Part shown: piece after piece, positions 13,765 to 53,000 of the stretch | Numbering within the stretch: position 1 is the stretch's first letter | Layout: the number at the start of each line of letters is the position of its first letter | Program-made: the position numbers and the translations under genes | Notes under the pieces: model-generated | The model's input: the letters and a program-made list of their open reading frames with translations, nothing else | What the model was told of the DNA's origin: nothing | Database searches by the model: none | Assembly (NCBI GenBank): GCA_900317285.1 | Contig: ONGA01000011.1 | Location: forward strand, 4,107-68,106 | Source of the DNA: an uncultured Bacteroidales bacterium | Lineage (GTDB): Bacteria > Bacteroidota > Bacteroidia > Bacteroidales > P3 | Reading direction: 5' to 3' | DNA length: 64,000 nt

Positions 13765-15678
13765 ATGCAAAATATTAGAAATATTGCAATTATAGCTCAC
13801 GTCGACCACGGAAAGACCACTCTGGTCGACCGCATGCTTCATCAGGCAAAGCTCTTCCGCGACAATCAGGAGACCGGCGAACTCATCCTCGACAACAACG
13901 ACCTCGAGCGCGAACGCGGCATCACCATCCTGTCGAAAAACGTCAGTGTCCGGTACAAGGGTTACAAAATCAATATCATCGACACTCCGGGTCACAGTGA
14001 CTTCGGCGGCGAGGTGGAGCGCGTGCTCAACATGGCCGACGGCGTCCTCCTCGTGGTCGACGCTTTTGAAGGCCCCATGCCGCAGACTCGCTTCGTCCTC
14101 CAGAAAGCCATCGAGCTGGGCCTCAAACCCATCGTGGTGGTCAACAAGGTCGACAAGCCCAACTGCGACCCCGAGCTGACGCAGGAGGCCGTCTTCGACC
14201 TCATGTTCAACCTCGGCGCCAACAACGACCAGCTCGAGTTCCCCACCGCCTACGGCTCCGCCAAGCAGGGCTGGATGGGTGAGGACTATAACACCCCCAC
14301 CGAGGACATCTCCTACCTCATGGACCTCATCATCGAGCACATTCCTGCTCCCAAGACCGACGAGGGTACCACCCAGATGATGATTTCCTCTCTCGACTAC
14401 AGTTCCTACCTCGGCCGTATCGCCGTGGGACGCCTCCATCGCGGCACCCTGCAGGCGGGTCAGAACGTCACCCTCGCCAAACGCGACGGTACTATGGTGA
14501 AGACTAAGATTAAGGAACTCTATGTCTTTGAGGGTCTTGGAAAAGAGAGAATAAAGACTCCTGTGGAGGCCGGTGAGATTTGCGCCGTGCTCATGGACCT
14601 CGACAAGAATGTCGCCTTCGAGATTGGCGACACCATCTGCGATATCGACAACCCCGAGGCTCTGCCCCCCATCAAGGTCGACGAGCCCACCATGTCCATG
14701 CTCTTCACCATCAACAACTCGCCCTTCTTCGGCAAGGAGGGCAAGTATGTCACCAGCCGCCACCTGCGCGACCGCCTCTTCGCCGAGCTGGAGAAGAACC
14801 TCGCTATGCGCATCGAGGAGACCGGCTCGCCCGATTCGCTGCTTGTCTACGGCCGCGGCATCATGCACCTCTCCGTCCTCATCGAGACCATGCGCCGCGA
14901 GGGCTATGAGCTGCAGGTGGGTCAGCCGAAGGTCATCATCCGCTACGGGAAAATTGAAAATGGAAAATTGAAAATTGAAAATTCGCTGCCGCACCCGGAT
15001 AATTCTCAATTCTCAACTCTCAATTCTCAATTAATCAAGTGCGAGCCTATCGAGCAACTCACCGTCCTGGTGCCCGAGGAGTTCAGCTCCAAAGTCATCG
15101 ATGTCGTCACCCGCCGCAAAGGCGAGGTGGGCACCATCGACACCAAGGGCGACCGTGTGCAGCTCGACTTCACCATCCCCTCGCGTGGCATCATCGGCTT
15201 GCGCAACACCCTTCTCACCGCCACCAACGGCGAGGCCATCATCGCCCACCGCTTCCTTGAGTTCCAGCCCTGGAAAGGCGACATGGACGACCACAAGTAT
15301 GGCGCCCTCATCGCCAAGGAGACCGGCGAGGCAACAGCCTACAGCATCAGCAAGCTGCAGGACCGCGGCCCCTTCTTCATCGAGCCGGGCGACCACGTCT
15401 ATGCCGGCGAAGTCATCGGCGAGAGCCTCCGTCCCGGCAACGACATCGTCATCAACGTCGTCACCGCCAAAAACCTCACCAACATGCGCACCAAGAGCGC
15501 CGACGAGAAGAGCACCTGCTCGCCCGCCATCAAGATGAGCCTCGAGGAGGCCATGGAGTACATCCGCGAGGATGAATACCTCGAGATCACCCCGCAACAC
15601 CTCCGCATCCGCAAGATCATCCTCGACGAAATCGAGCGCAAGCGCGCCCGCATCGCCGCCGGATACAAGGACGAGTAA
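13765..15678 (+). CDS. typA: translational GTPase TypA/BipA carrying a ~31-codon in-frame insertion
   Basis: 637 aa. [14 protein letters not shown]1 motif. Full-length BipA architecture. 30-35 aa longer than typical BipA. Confidence 0.95.
14947..15034. mobile_element. MITE/RPE-like palindromic heptamer element inserted in frame in typA
   Basis: Left arm (GAAAATT)n at 14948-14983, loop cgctgccgcacccggat, right arm (AATTCTC)n at 15001-15033. Encodes [29 protein letters not shown]. Confidence 0.7.
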
Positions 15679-22900: not shown

Positions 22901-22932
22901 AATGTTTAATGTTTAAAGTTTAATGTTTAAGG
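22901..22932. repeat. GTTTAA word-stutter repeat
   Basis: aatgtttaatgtttaaagtttaatgtttaagg. Confidence 0.7.
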
Positions 22933-38039: not shown

Positions 38040-38121
38040 CCGTAAACCATAAACCTTAAACTTTAAACCGTAAACCTTAAACCATAAACCTTAAACCTTA
38101 AACCATAAACCTTAAACCTTA
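38040..38121. repeat. array of ~10 degenerate 8-bp units AAACCNTA
   Basis: gtaaaccataaaccttaaactttaaaccgtaaaccttaaaccataaaccttaaaccttaaaccataaaccttaaacctta. Confidence 0.9.
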
Positions 38122-39792: not shown

Positions 39793-40880
39793 CTTGCAAT
39801 CTTTCTTGTTTCCACTTTCCGCTCAACATTTTCCACCTTCTTGCTTTCCACTTTCTGGCTCTCCACTTTCTTCACGTCGCGTTTGACCTCGCGTTTCACT
39901 TCGCGGGTGGGAGAGGCCGTGCTGCGGGAATTTGACGAGGAGCTCGCCGAGGGAGAGGCGGTGTTGCGGGAGGGAGTGGCTGTGCCGCGTGTAGTCGAGG
40001 AGGACGAGCTGGAAGAAGTCGAGCTGGAGCCCGTCGACGAGCTGCTTGTTGAAGGCGTAGCCACACCGCGGCTTGTCGCACTGGGCTTCGAGGAATTGCG
40101 GCTCGGAGTGGTCGATGGGGCGGCTCCATTGCTGCCCGTTGTCCCCTGCGGGGTGGCGACGCTGCGCGTCGTCGTGCTTGCGGGCTTCGCCGTGTTGCCG
40201 GCTGGAGTGGCCGTGTTGCGCGTATTCGTCGTCGTTGCCGGACGGGCCGTCGAAGTGCCCTGCGGAGCCCCCGAAGGAACCGTGCGGGCGGGAGTGGCCG
40301 TCGACACCTGCGGGCGGTCGACGCCGGGAGTCCATCTCGTTGTCGGCATCGGTGCGGGATCCGTGCGGCGACGCATGTAATAGGGTGGGAGAGAGTGGCC
40401 CCTGTAGGTCGTCGGCATCCACCCGTGGCGGTGCACATCCCAGTGATAGCTGCGGCTATAGGAACGCGAGTGGCTCACCCGGTTGAAAGTCCAGTAGGCA
40501 GGCACATGCCAGGTGAAACTTGGTCTGCACACCTCGGTCCGGAACCTCAGCACCTCGGCCGCGTTCCTCATCCGCACACCGTCGAACACCCACACGCACT
40601 GCAGATCCAGCGGCATATACACCTCGTCGCCGGTATATGCGTCCCAGCCGTACACCCACACCTCGTAGTAGGCCGAATTCACCCTTTCCTTCCACACCTC
40701 GCTCACCAGCACATAGGTCTCCACCTCATAGTCATATCCGCACCAGACCATCAGCTCGTTCTGCCCGTTGAGCATCCGGACTGTTCTGTCGGCCTGTGCC
40801 AAAGTGAAATAATGAATCGGGCGCGCCCATGCGGCAAACCCTAACATTGTCATAACCACGATAATTGCAAAGCGTTTCAT
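39789..40880 (-). CDS. secreted hypothetical protein: folded N-terminal domain, ~170-aa S/T/P/R-rich tract, charged KVE-repeat tail
   Basis: Start MKRFAIIVVMTMLGFAAWA (alternative ATG at 40898). Tail REVKREVKRDVKKVESQKVESKKVENVERKVETRK is encoded by TCCACTTTC/CGCGTTTCAC stutter at 39805-39905. 4-nt overlap with the downstream gene. Confidence 0.55.
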   Translation of the reverse strand: MKRFAIIVVMTMLGFAAWARPIHYFTLAQADRTVRMLNGQNELMVWCGYDYEVETYVLVSEVWKERVNSAYYEVWVYGWDAYTGDEVYMPLDLQCVWVFDGVRMRNAAEVLRFRTEVCRPSFTWHVPAYWTFNRVSHSRSYSRSYHWDVHRHGWMPTTYRGHSLPPYYMRRRTDPAPMPTTRWTPGVDRPQVSTATPARTVPSGAPQGTSTARPATTTNTRNTATPAGNTAKPASTTTRSVATPQGTTGSNGAAPSTTPSRNSSKPSATSRGVATPSTSSSSTGSSSTSSSSSSSTTRGTATPSRNTASPSASSSSNSRSTASPTREVKREVKRDVKKVESQKVESKKVENVERKVETRKIAR

Positions 40881-40907
40881 ATAAACTCCTTTTTCCATTT
40901 AGTGCTG

Positions 40908-40915
40908 CAAAGATA
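40908..40915 (-). promoter_or_regulatory. -7 promoter box (TATCTTTG)
   Basis: gctgcaaagatacgaaaa. Confidence 0.45.
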
Positions 40916-40952
40916 CGAAAACTTTCACACATGCAAAAGAAAAAAAACAGAT

Positions 40953-41138
40953 AAGGTTTAAAGTTTACGGTTTACGGTTTAAGGGGCTACGCAGCCAATG
41001 AGCCTCCCCAGAGACAGACAAATCAATAATCCATAAACATTAATTCTTAACCCCTAACCCTTAAACTTTAAACCTTAAACCATAAACCTTAAACCATAAA
41101 CTTTAAACCTTAAACCATAAACCTTAAACCAAAAACCT
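40953..41138. mobile_element. composite palindromic element, copy 1: GGTTTAAGG-type arm, 42-bp core, long CCTTAAACC-type arm
   Basis: Left arm 40953-40984. Core ggggctacgcagccaatgagcctccccagagacagacaaatc. Right arm reaches ~41138. Confidence 0.65.
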
Positions 41139-41140
41139 TG

Positions 41141-41230
41141 ACATAGGAGCATCATATACGCATCATATACGCATCATAGGAGAACCCAAGGAGAAGTATA
41201 GGAGAATGGTAGTACAACCATAGGAGGCAC
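41141..41230. repeat. CATAGGAG / CATCATATACG word-stutter block
   Basis: acataggagcatcatatacgcatcatatacgcatcataggagaacccaaggagaagtataggagaatggtag...ccataggagg. Confidence 0.7.
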
Positions 41231-41280
41231 TTTTTCCGGAATTCATCCCACATTCTCCTATCCCTCGTCCCAATCTCGGA

Positions 41281-41410
41281 TAAGGTTTAAGGTTTAAAGT
41301 TTAAGGTTTATGGGGGCTGCGCAGCCAACAGACCTCCCCGGTGACAGACAAATCCGTAAACCTTAAACCCTCAACCTTAAACCATAAACCTTAAACCTTA
41401 AACCATAAAC
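41281..41410. mobile_element. composite palindromic element, copy 2 (same orientation)
   Basis: Arm taaggtttaaggtttaaagtttaaggtttatgg. Core gggggctgcgcagccaacagacctccccggtgacagacaaatc contains the palindrome GGCTGCGCAGCC. Right arm is AAACC repeats. Confidence 0.65.
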
Positions 41411-41520
41411 TACTACCTTTCACTCCATTTAACTACCCAACCGCAAAAAATTAACCACCTGAAAACCATCACTCTACAATCAAAAACAAAAAAAAACTTG
41501 CACATGTCGGCAAAACTTCC

Positions 41521-41528
41521 TAACTTTG
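41521..41528 (+). promoter_or_regulatory. -7 promoter box (TAACTTTG)
   Basis: 26 nt upstream of ATG 41554. Confidence 0.4.
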
Positions 41529-41553
41529 CCCCCTGGAAAAAAGCGTTTTTAAC

Positions 41554-43032
41554 ATGAAAAACATAAAGCAAATCTTCACCGCCCTCCTCGCCCTCGCCAT
41601 CCTCATGCTCGGCTCCTCCGAGGCCCAGGCGCAGAATAAGAAATCCACCGGCAAGAAAACCACCACCACAACCAAAACCACCAAGAAGAAAAGCAAAGCC
41701 GCCGAACCCGCGGCACCCTCGCTCGTCGAGCTCCCCTACAACTCCAACGACTGCCTCTTCGCCATCCCGCTCACCCTCGACAAGCCCTACGGCCCCACCA
41801 CCGCCCCCGACGGTGCCGGCCGCATACAGGAAATCGTCGCCGACAAGGCTCACCCCAACCTCTTCGAGCGCGAACACAACTCCGTCTGGTACAAAGTCAC
41901 CATCCCCTACAACGGACAGCTCGAAATCCGCATCGCACAGAACTCGCAGTGGGACGACTACGACTTCCTCGTCTACCGCAACACCGGAGCCTACTTCTCC
42001 AACCAGGTGATGCTCAACAAAGTCAACCCCGTGGCCGTCAACCTCGCCAACATCGACTCCGCCGCCATGTTCAAGGCCGTCATGGGCAAGAACAAGCAGG
42101 AGAAAGCCTCACGCAACCAGGAGCGTCCCCACAGCAACACCCAGCAGAAGGGCAACAAACAGGCCTCCTCCGACCTCCCCGAGCTCCCCAACATCGCCCC
42201 CTCCGCCGACGCCAAACCCACCATCGGCATGCTCATCGACGCCACCGACCGCATGCTCACCAAGAAACAGACCGGCAACTTCATCCAGTCCATCCCCGTG
42301 CGTGCCGGTGAAGAATACTACATCGTCCTCGACAACAACACCCCCAACGGACAGGGACACACCATCACCGCCACCGTCCATGTCGACGCCTACGAGCCGC
42401 TGCTCCTCTTCTATGACAAGCGTGCGCGCAAGTATGTCGACGTCAACCTGATGATCCTCGAACGCGGCGGCAAGGGTGCCGAGCGCCCCATCGTGCAGGA
42501 CGAGCACTACCGCGGCGGCCGCATCAAGTTCATCCCCGACTTCGGCTACCTCCTCTACGCCAAGAAGGACGGCTACTTCTCCATCTACAAGGAGTTCAAC
42601 TCGCGCGAGCTCATGGAGAAGGGCGACACCGTGATGCTCTACAACATGGAGCGCACCGAGCGCGGCTCCTCCTTCCCCGTCTCCGGCCTCTACTTCGAGT
42701 CCGGCGAGGCGACCATGATCGGCAACTACGACTCCGTGCTCACCGAATACCTCGCCATGTTCCGCAACCACCCCGAAGTCACCTTCCTCGTCAAAGGCTA
42801 CGTCCAGTCCTACGGCGTCGACGCTGAGGCCGACATGCTCCTCTCCCTCGAGCGCGCCAAAGCCATCAAGCAGTGGTTCACCAAGAACGGCATCGACCCC
42901 AAGCGCATAGCCACCGCGGGTATGACCAAGAACGAAATCAAACGTGCCGCCGCAGCGGCACTCAACGACAAGGGCGGCTTCTCCTCAATCCGCGCCGAAC
43001 TCATCATCACCGGCAAGACAGCAGAACAATAA
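41554..43032 (+). CDS. OmpA-family (peptidoglycan-associating C-terminal domain) secreted protein with a Lys/Thr-rich linker
   Basis: 492 aa. Signal peptide. KKSTGKKTTTTTKTTKKKSK tract. C-terminal OmpA-like LSLERAKAIKQWFTKNGIDPKRIATAGM. Confidence 0.7.
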   Translation: MKNIKQIFTALLALAILMLGSSEAQAQNKKSTGKKTTTTTKTTKKKSKAAEPAAPSLVELPYNSNDCLFAIPLTLDKPYGPTTAPDGAGRIQEIVADKAHPNLFEREHNSVWYKVTIPYNGQLEIRIAQNSQWDDYDFLVYRNTGAYFSNQVMLNKVNPVAVNLANIDSAAMFKAVMGKNKQEKASRNQERPHSNTQQKGNKQASSDLPELPNIAPSADAKPTIGMLIDATDRMLTKKQTGNFIQSIPVRAGEEYYIVLDNNTPNGQGHTITATVHVDAYEPLLLFYDKRARKYVDVNLMILERGGKGAERPIVQDEHYRGGRIKFIPDFGYLLYAKKDGYFSIYKEFNSRELMEKGDTVMLYNMERTERGSSFPVSGLYFESGEATMIGNYDSVLTEYLAMFRNHPEVTFLVKGYVQSYGVDAEADMLLSLERAKAIKQWFTKNGIDPKRIATAGMTKNEIKRAAAAALNDKGGFSSIRAELIITGKTAEQ

Positions 43033-48738: not shown

Positions 48739-49989
48739 ATGAATAACAATAATAAAAATATCACCCCCTGCCACGTCGACGTCTCCTCGGAGACCGGACG
48801 CCTCCGCGCCGTCCTTCTCCACCGTCCGGGAGCCGAAATCGAACGCATGACTCCCCTCAACGCCGCCGAAGCGCTCTACAGCGACATCCTCAACAAGCCC
48901 ATCGTGGACAGCGAGTACCACTATTTCAGCGGTGTGCTCAACAAATGGACCGACGTCTACTATGTGGAGGATATCCTCGAGAGCCTCCTCCAAGAGCCCG
49001 CCGTCCGCCAGCACCTCGTGGGCGAGAGCTGCCGCATGGACGGCTGCACGCAGCTGGTGCCGCAACTCATGGACCTCGACCCCAAGCAGCTCGCTACCAT
49101 CCTCATCCAGGGCTACGAGAACCCCCGCTGGGACGCCCAGAATGCCGACGACCGCTACCTGCTGAAGCCGCTCTACAACCTCTTCTTCACCCGCGACGCC
49201 TCCTCGACGGTCTACGACCGCGTGCTCATCAACTCGATGAGCTTCAAGGTGCGTGAGCGCGAGACCCTCATCTACGAGGCCATCTTCAAGGACTTCTTCA
49301 AGGTGGACCTCCTCAACGCGCAGGCCCACGACCCGCAGGCCCGCACCGAAGGCGGCGACGTGCAGATTGCCGCCCCCGACCTCCTCTGCATCGGACAGGG
49401 CATCCGCACCAACGCCAAGGGTATCCGCTACCTGGCCGAAACCTTCGCCAAAGACCACCCTCACTTCCACATCCTCGCCCAGGAGCTCCCCATGAGTCCC
49501 GAGAGCTTCATCCACCTCGACATGGTGTTCACCTTCCTGGGCAAACACCAGTGCATGGCCTTCGAGCCCATGCTCAACAAGACAGGTCTCTTTGCCGGCA
49601 AGGCCACCACGCTCATCACCGTCGATAACGGCAAGATCACCTACACCGAGGTGCCCAACATCGTCAAGGGCCTTGAGCGGCTGGGCTGGGACATCGAACC
49701 CGTCACCGGTGGCGGCAGCGACCCCTGGAACCAGCTCCGCGAGCAGTGGCATTCCGGCTGCAACTTCTTCTCGCTTGGCGACGGCAAGGTCATAGGCTAC
49801 CGCCGCAACAGCCACACCATCGATGCCCTCGACCGCGCCGGGTTCGCCGTCCTCAACGCCGAGGACATCGTGGACGGCAAGGTTGATATGAACAATTACG
49901 ACAAGTTCGTCGCCGCCTTCCCGGGCAGCGAACTTCCCCGCGCCGGCGGCGGTGCCCGCTGCATGACGATGCCGATTTTGCGCGATTGA
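48739..49989 (+). CDS. arcA: arginine deiminase family (guanidino-group modifying) enzyme
   Basis: 416 aa. C-terminal catalytic Cys context GGGARCMTMPILRD. Confidence 0.75.
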   Translation: MNNNNKNITPCHVDVSSETGRLRAVLLHRPGAEIERMTPLNAAEALYSDILNKPIVDSEYHYFSGVLNKWTDVYYVEDILESLLQEPAVRQHLVGESCRMDGCTQLVPQLMDLDPKQLATILIQGYENPRWDAQNADDRYLLKPLYNLFFTRDASSTVYDRVLINSMSFKVRERETLIYEAIFKDFFKVDLLNAQAHDPQARTEGGDVQIAAPDLLCIGQGIRTNAKGIRYLAETFAKDHPHFHILAQELPMSPESFIHLDMVFTFLGKHQCMAFEPMLNKTGLFAGKATTLITVDNGKITYTEVPNIVKGLERLGWDIEPVTGGGSDPWNQLREQWHSGCNFFSLGDGKVIGYRRNSHTIDALDRAGFAVLNAEDIVDGKVDMNNYDKFVAAFPGSELPRAGGGARCMTMPILRD

Positions 49990-50042
49990 TTCCTCCTGCG
50001 AAGCGGGGAAAAAAGAGAGAAACTAACTAACTAACAATAAAA

Positions 50043-53000
50043 ATGAAACAGTATCATCTAGCCAACAACATCATCGGGTGGATAATCTGCGCGATTGCCT
50101 GCTCGGTGTACATCATGACTGCGGAAGCTACCGCCTCATGGTGGGACTGCGGCGAGTACATCGCCACCGCCTTCAAACTCCAAGTCGGCCACCCACCGGG
50201 AGCACCCACCTTCCAACTCCTCGGACGACTCTTCTCCATGTTCTCAAGCCCCGAAACAGCAGCCCACGCCGTCAACGTGATGAGCGCCATGTGTAGCGGC
50301 TTCACCATCATGTTCCTCTTCTGGGGAATCACGCTCCTGGGCAAACACCTCCTCCCGGACCCCAAGAACCCCAGCCTCAAGGACTGGAAAACCTGGGCGG
50401 TCTTCGCTGCCGGCATCGTCGGCTCCCTGGCCTACACCTTCAGCGACACCTTCTGGTTCTCCGCCGTCGAGGGCGAGGTCTACGCCATGAGTAGCTTCTT
50501 CACGGCACTCGTCTTCTGGGCGATACTCAAATGGGAGGAACAGAGCGACGAGCCCCACGCCCTGCGCTGGCTCATCCTCATCAGCCTGCTGGTGGGCGTC
50601 GCCATCGGCGTGCACCTGCTGAACCTGCTTACGGTTCCCGCCATCTTCTACGTCGTCTACTTCAAGAAATGGCCCAAGACCACCTGTAAGGGCTTCATCG
50701 CCACAGGTCTCATCTCCCTGGTCACCCTGGGTGTCATCCTCTGGGGCATCATCCCGGGCATCGTCAACGTCGACTCCGCGGTGGACGTCCTCTTCGTCAA
50801 CACCTTCAAGCTCCCCTTCAACAGCGGCACCATCTTCTTCTTCACACTGCTGACCGCCGTCGTCGTCTGGGGGCTCTGGTACACACGCAAGAAGAACCAC
50901 CCCGTCATCAATGCCGCCATCCTGAGCTTTGCAATGCTCGTCATCGGCTACTCCACCTTCTTCGTCCTCGTGATCCGCGCCAACACCAACACGCCCCTCA
51001 ACGAGAACGCCCCGAAGGATGCCGTCGCGATGCGTGCCTACCTGGGTCGCGAGCAGTACGGCGACACGCCCCTCTTCAGCGGCCAGTACTACACCGCCGG
51101 ACGCCCCATCGACACCGAGAAAGGCTACACCAAATACATCCGCGGCAAGGACGAGAAGGGCCGCGACCGCTACATCCCGGCTGCCCACGCCCTCAAGTTC
51201 GTCTACCGCGAGGACCACACCGGCTTCTTCCCCCGCATGTGGAGCAACGACAACACCCGCCAGCACCCCCGCTTCTACGAGTATTGGGCTGGCAAGGTCT
51301 ACGGCGACTCCAAACCCACCTTCGGGCAGAACCTCAAGTTCTTCAACCGCTATCAGCTCGGCTGGATGTACTGGCGTTACTTCATGTGGAACTTCGCCGG
51401 CAGGCAGAACGACATCCAGGGCCACTACTTCAACGGTGACGGTACGCGCGACTACCTCAACGGCAACTGGATCTCCGGCATCAACTTCATCGACGAGGCA
51501 CGCCTCGGACCCCAGGACAACCTCCCCGACGCAATGGCCCAGAACAAGGCTCGCAACGTCTACTACCTCCTGCCGCTCCTCCTCGGTATCCTCGGCCTCG
51601 TCTACCACCTGCGCCGTCACCCGAAGGACGCCTTCATCGTCTTCATCATGTTCTTCATGACGGGTCTCGCCATTGCCATCTACCTGAACATGCCCCCGCG
51701 CCAGCCGCGTGAACGCGACTACGCCTTCGTGGGCTCCTTCAGCTTCTTCGCCATCTGGATCGGTCTTGGAGTGATGGGTCTGGCGGAATGGGTGAGTGCC
51801 CTATTTAAAAAGAATAAGGAGAAAGTCTACAAGGTGGTGCTCCCCGTGGTCTTCGTCCTCAGCATGGCCGGTGTTCCCTGCCTCATGGCTGCCCAGAACT
51901 GGGACGACCACGACCGTAGCCAGAAGACCGCCGCCCGCGACTTCGCCCAGAACTACCTCAAGAGCATCAAGAAGAACGGCATCCTTGTCACCTTCGGCGA
52001 CAACGACACCTTCCCCCTCTGGTACGCCCAGGAGGTCGAGGGCACACGCACCGATGTGCGCATCCTCAACTACACCCTCTCCGGCATGTACTGGTATGTC
52101 GAGCAGCTCTACAACAAGCTCTATGAGAGCGAAGCGCTGCCCTTCACCCTGCCCAAGGAGTTCTACGGCCTCGGTAACGACCAGACAATCATCATGGACC
52201 GCTCCGCCGACTTCCTCGAAGTCTCCGATGTGCTCGCCATGATGCGCGACTACCCCGAGCGTTTCACCTTCACCGACCAGCGCAGCGGCGAGAAGCTCCA
52301 CTACATCCCCACCAAGCGCTTCAAGATTACGCTCGACATCCCCGCTCTGGTGAAGGCTGGCGTCATTCCCGCCGAGATTGCCGACCAGGTCAATCCCGAA
52401 ATCCGCTGGGAAATCAACGTCAAATCGGGTGCCCTCTACCGCCACGAGCTCATGCTGCTCGATATCATCGGTACTAACAAGTTCATGCGCGACATCAACT
52501 TCGGTAACCCCAATTCGAGCGGCATTCCCGACGTCTTCCCGATGATCAGCTCCTACACCATCCAGGACGGCTTGAACTACAAGATGATCCCCTATCCGAA
52601 GCAGCAACGTTTCACCAACACCAGCGCCGACTACTTCATCAACGGTGTCGACGGCCAGGAGCTGAAATGGGGCAACCTCGACCGCGACATCTATGTCGAC
52701 CCCGTCAGCAGCCAGCAGTTCGCTGTGGCGCTGCAGCAGACCCTGATGGCGCTGGCAAGCGAGGAGCATGCCAAGGGTAACGACGACAAGGCCCGCAAGC
52801 TCATCGAGATCTACGAGAAGAACTTCCCCGAGAAGAACTTCCCCGCCGACCTCTACCATGTCTATGTCCCCCTGTCGGGCAACAACTACATCGACATCGT
52901 CAACCTCTACAAGGAGGTGATGGGTGTTGAGCACGCCAAGCGCCTCTGGCAGTCGGTCTTCACCTACTACGACCAGGAGATTGCCTACCTCTCCCGCTTC

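Follow-up and report, generated by a model that had tools for sequence, protein, structure and literature searches.

Inverted pairs of short tandem repeats have been described from several bacteria. In Xanthomonas, arrays of the heptamer GGGAATC show a preference for four units, occur as 70-75 convergent inverted pairs and are located near stop and start codons, mostly between co-oriented genes; the Nostoc heptamer GGGGA(C/T)T is also found in convergent inverted pairs (Rehm et al., 2015; PMC4692102). The intervening sequence (IVS) in helix 45 of the Coxiella burnetii 23S rRNA is closed by a 28-bp terminal-inverted-repeat stem, within which RNase III cuts, and its 5' region contains GACAGAT heptamers (two to three plus one degenerate) just upstream of the S23p ORF, in a number that differs between strains (Warrier et al., 2016; PMC4990558). 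Rickettsia palindromic elements are short palindromes that are scattered in a small genome and also occur inside ORFs, and REP, BIME and REPIN elements are abundant intergenic hairpins that often form mosaics with other repeats. The 'BrickBuilt' element of Porphyromonas gingivalis is a miniature inverted-repeat transposable element (MITE) that contains a minisatellite; it is small, non-coding and dispersed and has inverted ends.

Here we describe two heptamer-armed hairpins from a bacterium that is probably a rumen member of the Bacteroidales. They lie in a window of 64,000 nucleotides, which is the whole stretch of DNA that was analysed, in the divergent (-+) spacer between a secreted-protein gene read leftward (ATG at 40880) and an OmpA-like/A2M operon read rightward (ATG at 41554). 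The spacer is occupied by hairpin 1, a block of 131 bp and hairpin 2, in this order (Table 1), and the nearest start codons are 75 bp and 143 bp away from the hairpin pair. A search of positions 40000-42500 with the Rfam covariance models (cmscan, E up to 10) gave two chance-level matches only.

Table 1. Features of the divergent spacer, in window coordinates. Promoter elements are predictions.
Feature	Position	Strand	Description
Predicted Bacteroidota-type promoter of the leftward secreted-protein gene	40908..40938	-	inferred from sequence reading
-7 box of the predicted leftward promoter	40908-40915	-	TATCTTTG; sequence reading
-33 element of the predicted leftward promoter	near 40934-40937	-	TTTG; sequence reading
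Hairpin 1	40955-41139	+	G-arm, core and inverted NTAAACC array
G-rich arm of hairpin 1	40955..40982	+	28 bp, four GGTTTAN heptamers; base-paired to the C-arm when folded
Core/loop of hairpin 1 (core A)	40983..41033 (core to 41024/41033)	+	starts GGGGCTACGCAGCC
C-rich array of hairpin 1	41034..41139	+	NTAAACC; TRF period 7, 15.1 copies
GACATAGGAG element	41140..41270	+	separate dispersed repeat, ~131 bp, species-specific
Hairpin 2	41284-41410	+	G-arm, core and C-arm
G-rich arm of hairpin 2	41284..41311	+	four heptamers
Core/loop of hairpin 2 (core A)	41312..41355	+	44 bp; perfect palindrome GGCTGCGCAGCC at 41315-41326
C-rich arm of hairpin 2	41356..41410	+	7.7 NTAAACC units
Predicted promoter of the OmpA-like/A2M operon	41497..41528	+	inferred from sequence reading
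TTG of the predicted OmpA-like/A2M promoter	41497-41499	+	sequence reading
-7 box of the predicted OmpA-like/A2M promoter	41521-41528	+	TAACTTTG; sequence reading

The arms of both hairpins consist of tandem 7-nt units, and within each hairpin one arm is the reverse complement of the other. Four units make up each G-rich arm (GGTTTAA, AGTTTAC, GGTTTAC and GGTTTAA in hairpin 1), and the C-rich arms have 7.7 and 15 units. Both hairpins begin at the same left boundary, GATAA-GGTTTAA. In the predicted folds the stems are at least 28 bp long, and in hairpin 1 it is the proximal units of the C-rich array that pair with the G-rich arm. Folded as RNA, the hairpins had z-scores of -5.0 (hairpin 1) and -6.7 (hairpin 2), and none of 200 shuffled sequences folded equally well; folded as DNA, the z-scores were -2.8 and -6.0. 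The two cores have the same orientation and are identical at 35 of 42 positions (83%), with seven differences. In hairpin 1, GGCTACGCAGCC at 40985-40996 contains the junction motif GCTACGC and lies 2 nt past the arm. The core pattern was matched twice, with 0.01 matches expected, and a double heptamer 37 times, with 0.13 expected, so that chance is excluded for both. A preliminary description of this DNA had proposed two tandem composite elements, with tandem-repeat arms of opposite polarity around a conserved core, in a 673-bp divergent promoter region between a secreted-protein gene and the OmpA/A2M pair. The sequence, the TRF output and the folds agree with this structure, and the positions of the two start codons agree with this spacer size. 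The description had also given a core identity of about 85 percent in the same orientation, which is close to the value found here, and a palindrome that is perfect in the second copy, which was located as listed in Table 1.

A metagenome contig from a second strain (L096) spans hairpin 2 together with 2 kb on its right. In this strain a 14-bp deletion at 41285-41298 has removed two units from the G-rich arm, leaving two instead of four, and the C-rich arm has two substitutions (41384 and 41390). The core of hairpin 2 and about 295 bp of other spacer sequence are unchanged, and the coding DNA, over about 1.4 kb, has about 22 substitutions. The hairpin arms evolve fast by slippage of units, and the core is stable between the two strains.

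When TRF was applied to the whole genome, 250 arrays of period 7 were obtained, with GAAAATT, AAACCTT, AATTCTC and AATTCCG as the main units. Pairing of the arrays resulted in 18 period-7 hairpins with loops of at most 60 nt (10 with GGTTTAA arms, 7 with GAAAATT/GAGAATT arms and 1 with GAATTCG arms), a count that leaves out C14:161693 (unit AGTTTTT), which was paired in the first pass only. In all 18 hairpins, both locus copies included, the G-rich arm is on the 5' side; the sole pair of opposite polarity was an artefact that arose between the two locus copies. The median arm length is about 4.6 units. A GCT-N1-2-CGC tag is present 0-8 nt from an arm end in 15 of the 18 hairpins, compared with 1.0 on average and at most 6 for random genome windows of equal size (2,000 trials), and in both locus copies it lies 2-5 nt past the arm. 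A member of the class comprises about four 7-base units in each stem arm, with the G-rich arm 5', and a loop that opens with GCT-N1-2-CGC(A). Of 101 genomes sampled from the genus, 12 contained the GGTTTAA hairpin pattern and none the reversed control pattern. With ten such hairpins in this genome and the family present in relatives, the identity of the two units as elements, which had been suggested before, is supported.

According to a crude ORF caller, each of the eight GGTTTAA hairpins at other loci occupies the interval from a stop codon to the start codon of the next co-directional gene, leaving margins of 1-9 nt. The locus pair lacks this stop-to-start, sense-oriented placement, which is common to all eight. 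Where the tag is present on a single strand, it is on the sense strand (4 of 4 hairpins). All ten GGTTTAA copies are intergenic, which is explained by the presence of TAA in every frame within three units of both arms, read from the sequence. The sister family with GAAAATT/GAGAATT arms is also found inside long ORFs, including typA at window positions 14947-15034. In that sister family the antisense strand gives the more stable fold. The folding energies of the GGTTTAA family had no consistent bias between sense and antisense; as the sense strand is not the more stable one, there is no sign of strand-specific selection at the RNA level.

The GGTTTAA family resembles the Xanthomonas and Nostoc arrays in its preference for four units, in its convergent arrangement with the G-rich arm first, in a location that is mostly between co-oriented genes and near their stop or start codons, and in a unit number that varies between relatives; solo arrays also occur there, as they do in this genome. 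Unlike the Xanthomonas and Nostoc units, GGTTTAA contains no G-tract of three, and the G-quadruplex reading of those arrays (PMC4692102) is therefore inapplicable. A conserved loop tag and a link to PF05635, both of which are present in the GGTTTAA class, are not reported for the arrays of that study. The loop of the Coxiella IVS carries an S23p/PF05635 ORF, and so do GGTTTAA-armed cassettes of relatives (L055, L056 and L100; see below), whereas the locus hairpins have no ORF, lie outside rRNA and occupy a promoter spacer that is apparently untranscribed. The Rickettsia palindromic elements are similar to the GAAAATT/GAGAATT family in that both enter ORFs; their arms, in contrast, are not tandem heptamers, and the GGTTTAA family cannot be read through. 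Mosaics with other repeats, as formed by REP, BIME and REPIN elements, are also seen in this spacer, but REPs are short unique palindromes and the locus stems consist of tandem units. Compared with minisatellite-bearing MITEs such as 'BrickBuilt', the tandem repeats here are themselves the inverted ends, and neither a target-site duplication nor a parent IS was found. The terminal inverted repeats had been called unusual for being microsatellite-like; arms of about four heptamers instead mark a class that is known, if obscure (PMC4692102, PMC4990558). The class is poorly described, and the present locus adds a member to it.

A third copy of core A was identified by BLAST at C7:163262-163363, where the hairpin that contains it fills the etfB-etfA junction. 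Two other species (G116 and G151) have this entire hairpin without any difference, and the coding DNA on either side of it has several differences among the three genomes. No other genome of the genus matched core A. Of the picture of a core unique to the locus with arms that are free to vary, the second half holds, since the arms slip between strains, and the first does not, since the core recurs here. Across 30 species (L103-L132), five etfB-etfA junctions are empty and consist of TGA, 5 nt and ATG. The occupied junctions contain hairpins or solo arrays from at least eight arm families, as inserts of about 40-150 nt, several of which have a GGCT.CGC tag on the sense strand. Comparison of filled with empty sites showed that the spacer is replaced, without duplication. 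Within the genus, this junction is a hot spot.

A separate GGTTTAA hairpin with a second conserved core was observed at C28:21404-21507, where it fills the gap before hutH. The arm opens with the TAA that serves as stop codon of the upstream gene, and the ATG comes immediately after the last unit. The hairpin at the hutH junction is conserved in at least four metagenome-assembled genomes (MAGs) of rumen Bacteroidales (L097, L098, L101 and L102).

Four genes of the genome exceeded the cut-off for PF05635, the '23S rRNA intervening-sequence protein', which is not a known transposase. Three of the four are enclosed by inverted tandem arms, with the units GTAGTTAAA, AAAGATTAA and GAATTCG; a GGTTTAA-armed PF05635 cassette was not found in this genome, so that a protein partner of the hairpins, if there is any, is absent here or has other arms. 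GGTTTAA-armed PF05635 cassettes were found in relatives (L055 from G033, L056 from G051 and L100 from a further MAG), with E-values of 3.6e-33 and 4.6e-31 for PF05635 ORFs in them. L055 and L056 are orthologous cassettes and come from relatives that have GGTTTAA hairpins. The three cassettes have the same order of parts: (GGTTTAA)4, GG, TGGCTGACGCA, about 10 nt, the ATG and PF05635 ORF, and (TTAAACC)n. The inner junction (arm, GG, GCT-N1-2-CGCA) has the same position in L052, in the three cassettes and in the locus copies. All three cassettes (L055:1425-1890 in the first) are flanked by the same gene pair, and at the orthologous site in the window, 49989-50044, a 56-bp spacer with a AACTAACTAACTAAC stutter is present and the cassette is not. 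The tag was seen in about one third of the sampled PF05635 cassettes.

The GGTTTAA hairpins and the cassettes have arms, polarity, arm length and junction tag in common, as read from their sequences. The same arms and tag surround a PF05635 gene in relatives, and the hairpins are therefore most simply regarded as short, non-autonomous IVS-like cassettes, a link that is drawn from architecture, arms and tag and not from homology of the whole core. When the core interior was compared with 35 cassette loci (blastn-short), matches were confined to the arms, which gives no support to the cores being deletion derivatives of a sampled cassette interior. An origin of the loop tag as a copy of the base of 23S rRNA helix 45 was also considered and is unsupported: this assembly contains no 23S rRNA, and 23S fragments of a relative share only GCT.CG with the tag. 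In the literature library searched we found no paper that links genome-wide heptamer hairpins to PF05635 cassettes.

The reading that we prefer, and consider probable, is that the two locus copies are gene-less, slippage-prone, IVS-like hairpins in an atypical position upstream of two promoters, where they are probably neutral. At the operon junctions the copies would be co-transcribed with their neighbours, and by analogy with the Coxiella IVS their stems of 28-35 bp would be substrates of RNase III, the gene for which is present in this genome. Bacteroidota promoters follow the consensus TAnnTTTG (-7) and TTTG (-33). The predicted leftward promoter has its -33 element about 17 bp downstream of the start of hairpin 1, and the predicted promoter of the OmpA-like/A2M operon is downstream of both hairpins. 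If these predicted positions are right, the pair lies upstream of both promoters, and would therefore probably be silent in the sense of being untranscribed, and neutral there.

The proximity of hairpin 1 to the -33 element would also fit a cis-regulatory or architectural module, in which AT-rich phased arrays, possibly as cruciforms, tune the divergent promoters, and in which the unit number acts as a contingency switch of the OmpA/A2M operon or of the secreted-protein gene. The unequal unit number in the two strains would be expected of such a switch, and the spacer has a history of arrays: a solo GGTTTAN array occupies the equivalent place in G116, and decayed traces are left in G002 and G012. 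However, the arrays are located outside the -33/-7 spacing that is used in classical phase variation, the other family members are at operon junctions rather than promoters, and the same gene pair in relatives has spacers of about 300 bp, mostly without hairpins and with such traces or other microsatellites only. We consider a regulatory role of the pair unlikely.

A classical MITE or REPIN, that is, a non-autonomous DNA transposon moved in trans, for instance by a RAYT-like enzyme that recognises the hairpin and tag, would account for multiple dispersed copies with inverted ends, and the genome does have one Y1/RAYT-like gene (PF01797 Y1_Tnp, 147 aa; C13:30811-31152, locus L045:1400-2030). 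RAYT genes are typically single copy, as this one is, and in several copies the tag, when read on the reverse strand, is CGTAGC, which recalls the GTAG of REPs and is a lead only. This gene, however, is flanked by inverted palindromes of the GCCCCGTAGGGGC type, which have 10 copies in the genome, and not by heptamer hairpins, and so belongs to a separate REP-like system. In the flanks of the ten GGTTTAA hairpins no direct repeat was found that would represent a target-site duplication, the boundaries being blurred by degenerate arm ends, and none was visible at the etfB-etfA junction in 30 species. No transposase-bearing autonomous relative with these ends was found in the genome, and longer relatives of the hairpins carry only PF05635. 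The arm sequence, moreover, varies by family under a constant architecture, a poor fit to sequence-specific recognition of the ends. A classical MITE reading of the architecture, called MITE-like in the preliminary description, is not supported, as neither a target-site duplication nor a matching transposase-bearing element was found, and transposition of this kind is very improbable. Mobility by reverse transcription was rejected, as no PF00078 reverse transcriptase gene was found in this 96%-complete genome.

A purely local product of slippage and one tandem duplication within the spacer, devoid of element identity, is the least credible explanation: the arms do change by whole units between strains, the copies are adjacent and share their left boundary, and an array at this spacer is older than the species, but arms, polarity, arm length and tag recur at eight other loci and in other species, core A recurs between etfB and etfA, and duplication may account for there being two copies and not for their nature as elements.

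A wider proposal can be made tentatively, and we regard it as possible though doubtful: heptamer hairpins, solo arrays and PF05635 cassettes would be one mobile system, in which the arms and the tag GCT-N1-2-CGCA are cis-acting and the PF05635 protein or a host factor acts on them. PF05635 is a small four-helix-bundle protein related to Avd, the accessory protein of diversity-generating retroelements (DGRs). The arm-plus-tag junction is also found in MAGs of rumen Bacteroidales and in one Cytophagales genome (L099), and the tag is conserved from the former to the latter. Were the proposal true, it would account for the excess of bacterial heptamer repeats, an observation now decades old, and for how the intervening sequences of rRNA arose, and the genus would offer a natural test case in its etfB-etfA junction. 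Taken alone, the locus is no more than ordinary repeats within a promoter spacer; it is valuable as a thoroughly documented example of a class that occupies operon junctions across many phyla and on which hardly anything has been published. Three points make this class, and rRNA intervening sequences with it, accessible to experiments on mobility and function: the same arms and tag are found both around a PF05635 gene and without one, the arms have changed between two strains in which the core has not, and the etfB-etfA junction is vacant in some species of the genus and carries hairpins with very different arms in others.

The block between the two hairpins had been taken for a separator of CATAGGAG words. 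It is instead a distinct element and the most abundant repeat of the genome. A search with nhmmer gave 66 matches, corresponding to about 60 copies in the 2.07-Mb assembly, mostly more than 90% identical. The copies start sharply at GACATAGGAG after a C run. Over the first ~90 nt they consist of CATAGGAG words repeated, in degenerate form, every 11 bp, and the 3' part contains a T-run and the inverted word CTCCTAT. In 46 of 53 intergenic copies the element is oriented toward the start of the downstream gene. It was absent from all 142 other genomes of the genus that were searched, which points to a recent, species-specific burst. Three copies (C8:59219-59715, C11:466-990 and C20:72431-72701) share additional upstream sequence of about 270-520 bp, or about 400-650 bp in a search for a longer parent. 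No mobile-element gene that would indicate such a parent was seen in this extension; it holds an 8-bp stutter module of the GAAGTCTC type, so that repeat modules travel jointly as mosaics. Two contig ends of the assembly lie inside the GACATAGGAG element. Heptamer hairpins and the ~60-copy element break MAG assemblies in this way, and the metagenome contig of the second strain also stops within such repeats.

Ten copies of the GACATAGGAG element, that of the locus included, carry a TAAACC 'head'. The distal units of the hairpin 1 array (about six, 41097-41139) align with the head of the nine other copies, and the 15-unit arm is therefore probably the hairpin's own C-arm fused to this head. The array in G116 and the decayed traces in relatives indicate that an array at this spacer is old and that the present structure is lineage-specific. 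The spacer may have started from an old GGTTTAN array, in which two core-A hairpins, now diverged, arose, possibly via an old duplication; the species-specific GACATAGGAG repeat would then have inserted between them, its TAAACC head becoming fused to the C-arm of hairpin 1.

Elsewhere in the window, about 12 NTAAACC units at 38040-38121 form a solo array, with neither an opposing G-arm nor a core, that takes up the entire 99-bp gap between two co-directional genes. At 22903-22930, four heptamers of the TGTTTAA type are situated directly upstream of a predicted TAnnTTTG promoter. In G015, a near-perfect hairpin with a short loop (L029:1185-1285) was observed upstream of the OmpA-like orthologue. 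The arms of this hairpin consist of three 11-bp units, ACGGTAGTATT; its architecture is alike and its period different.
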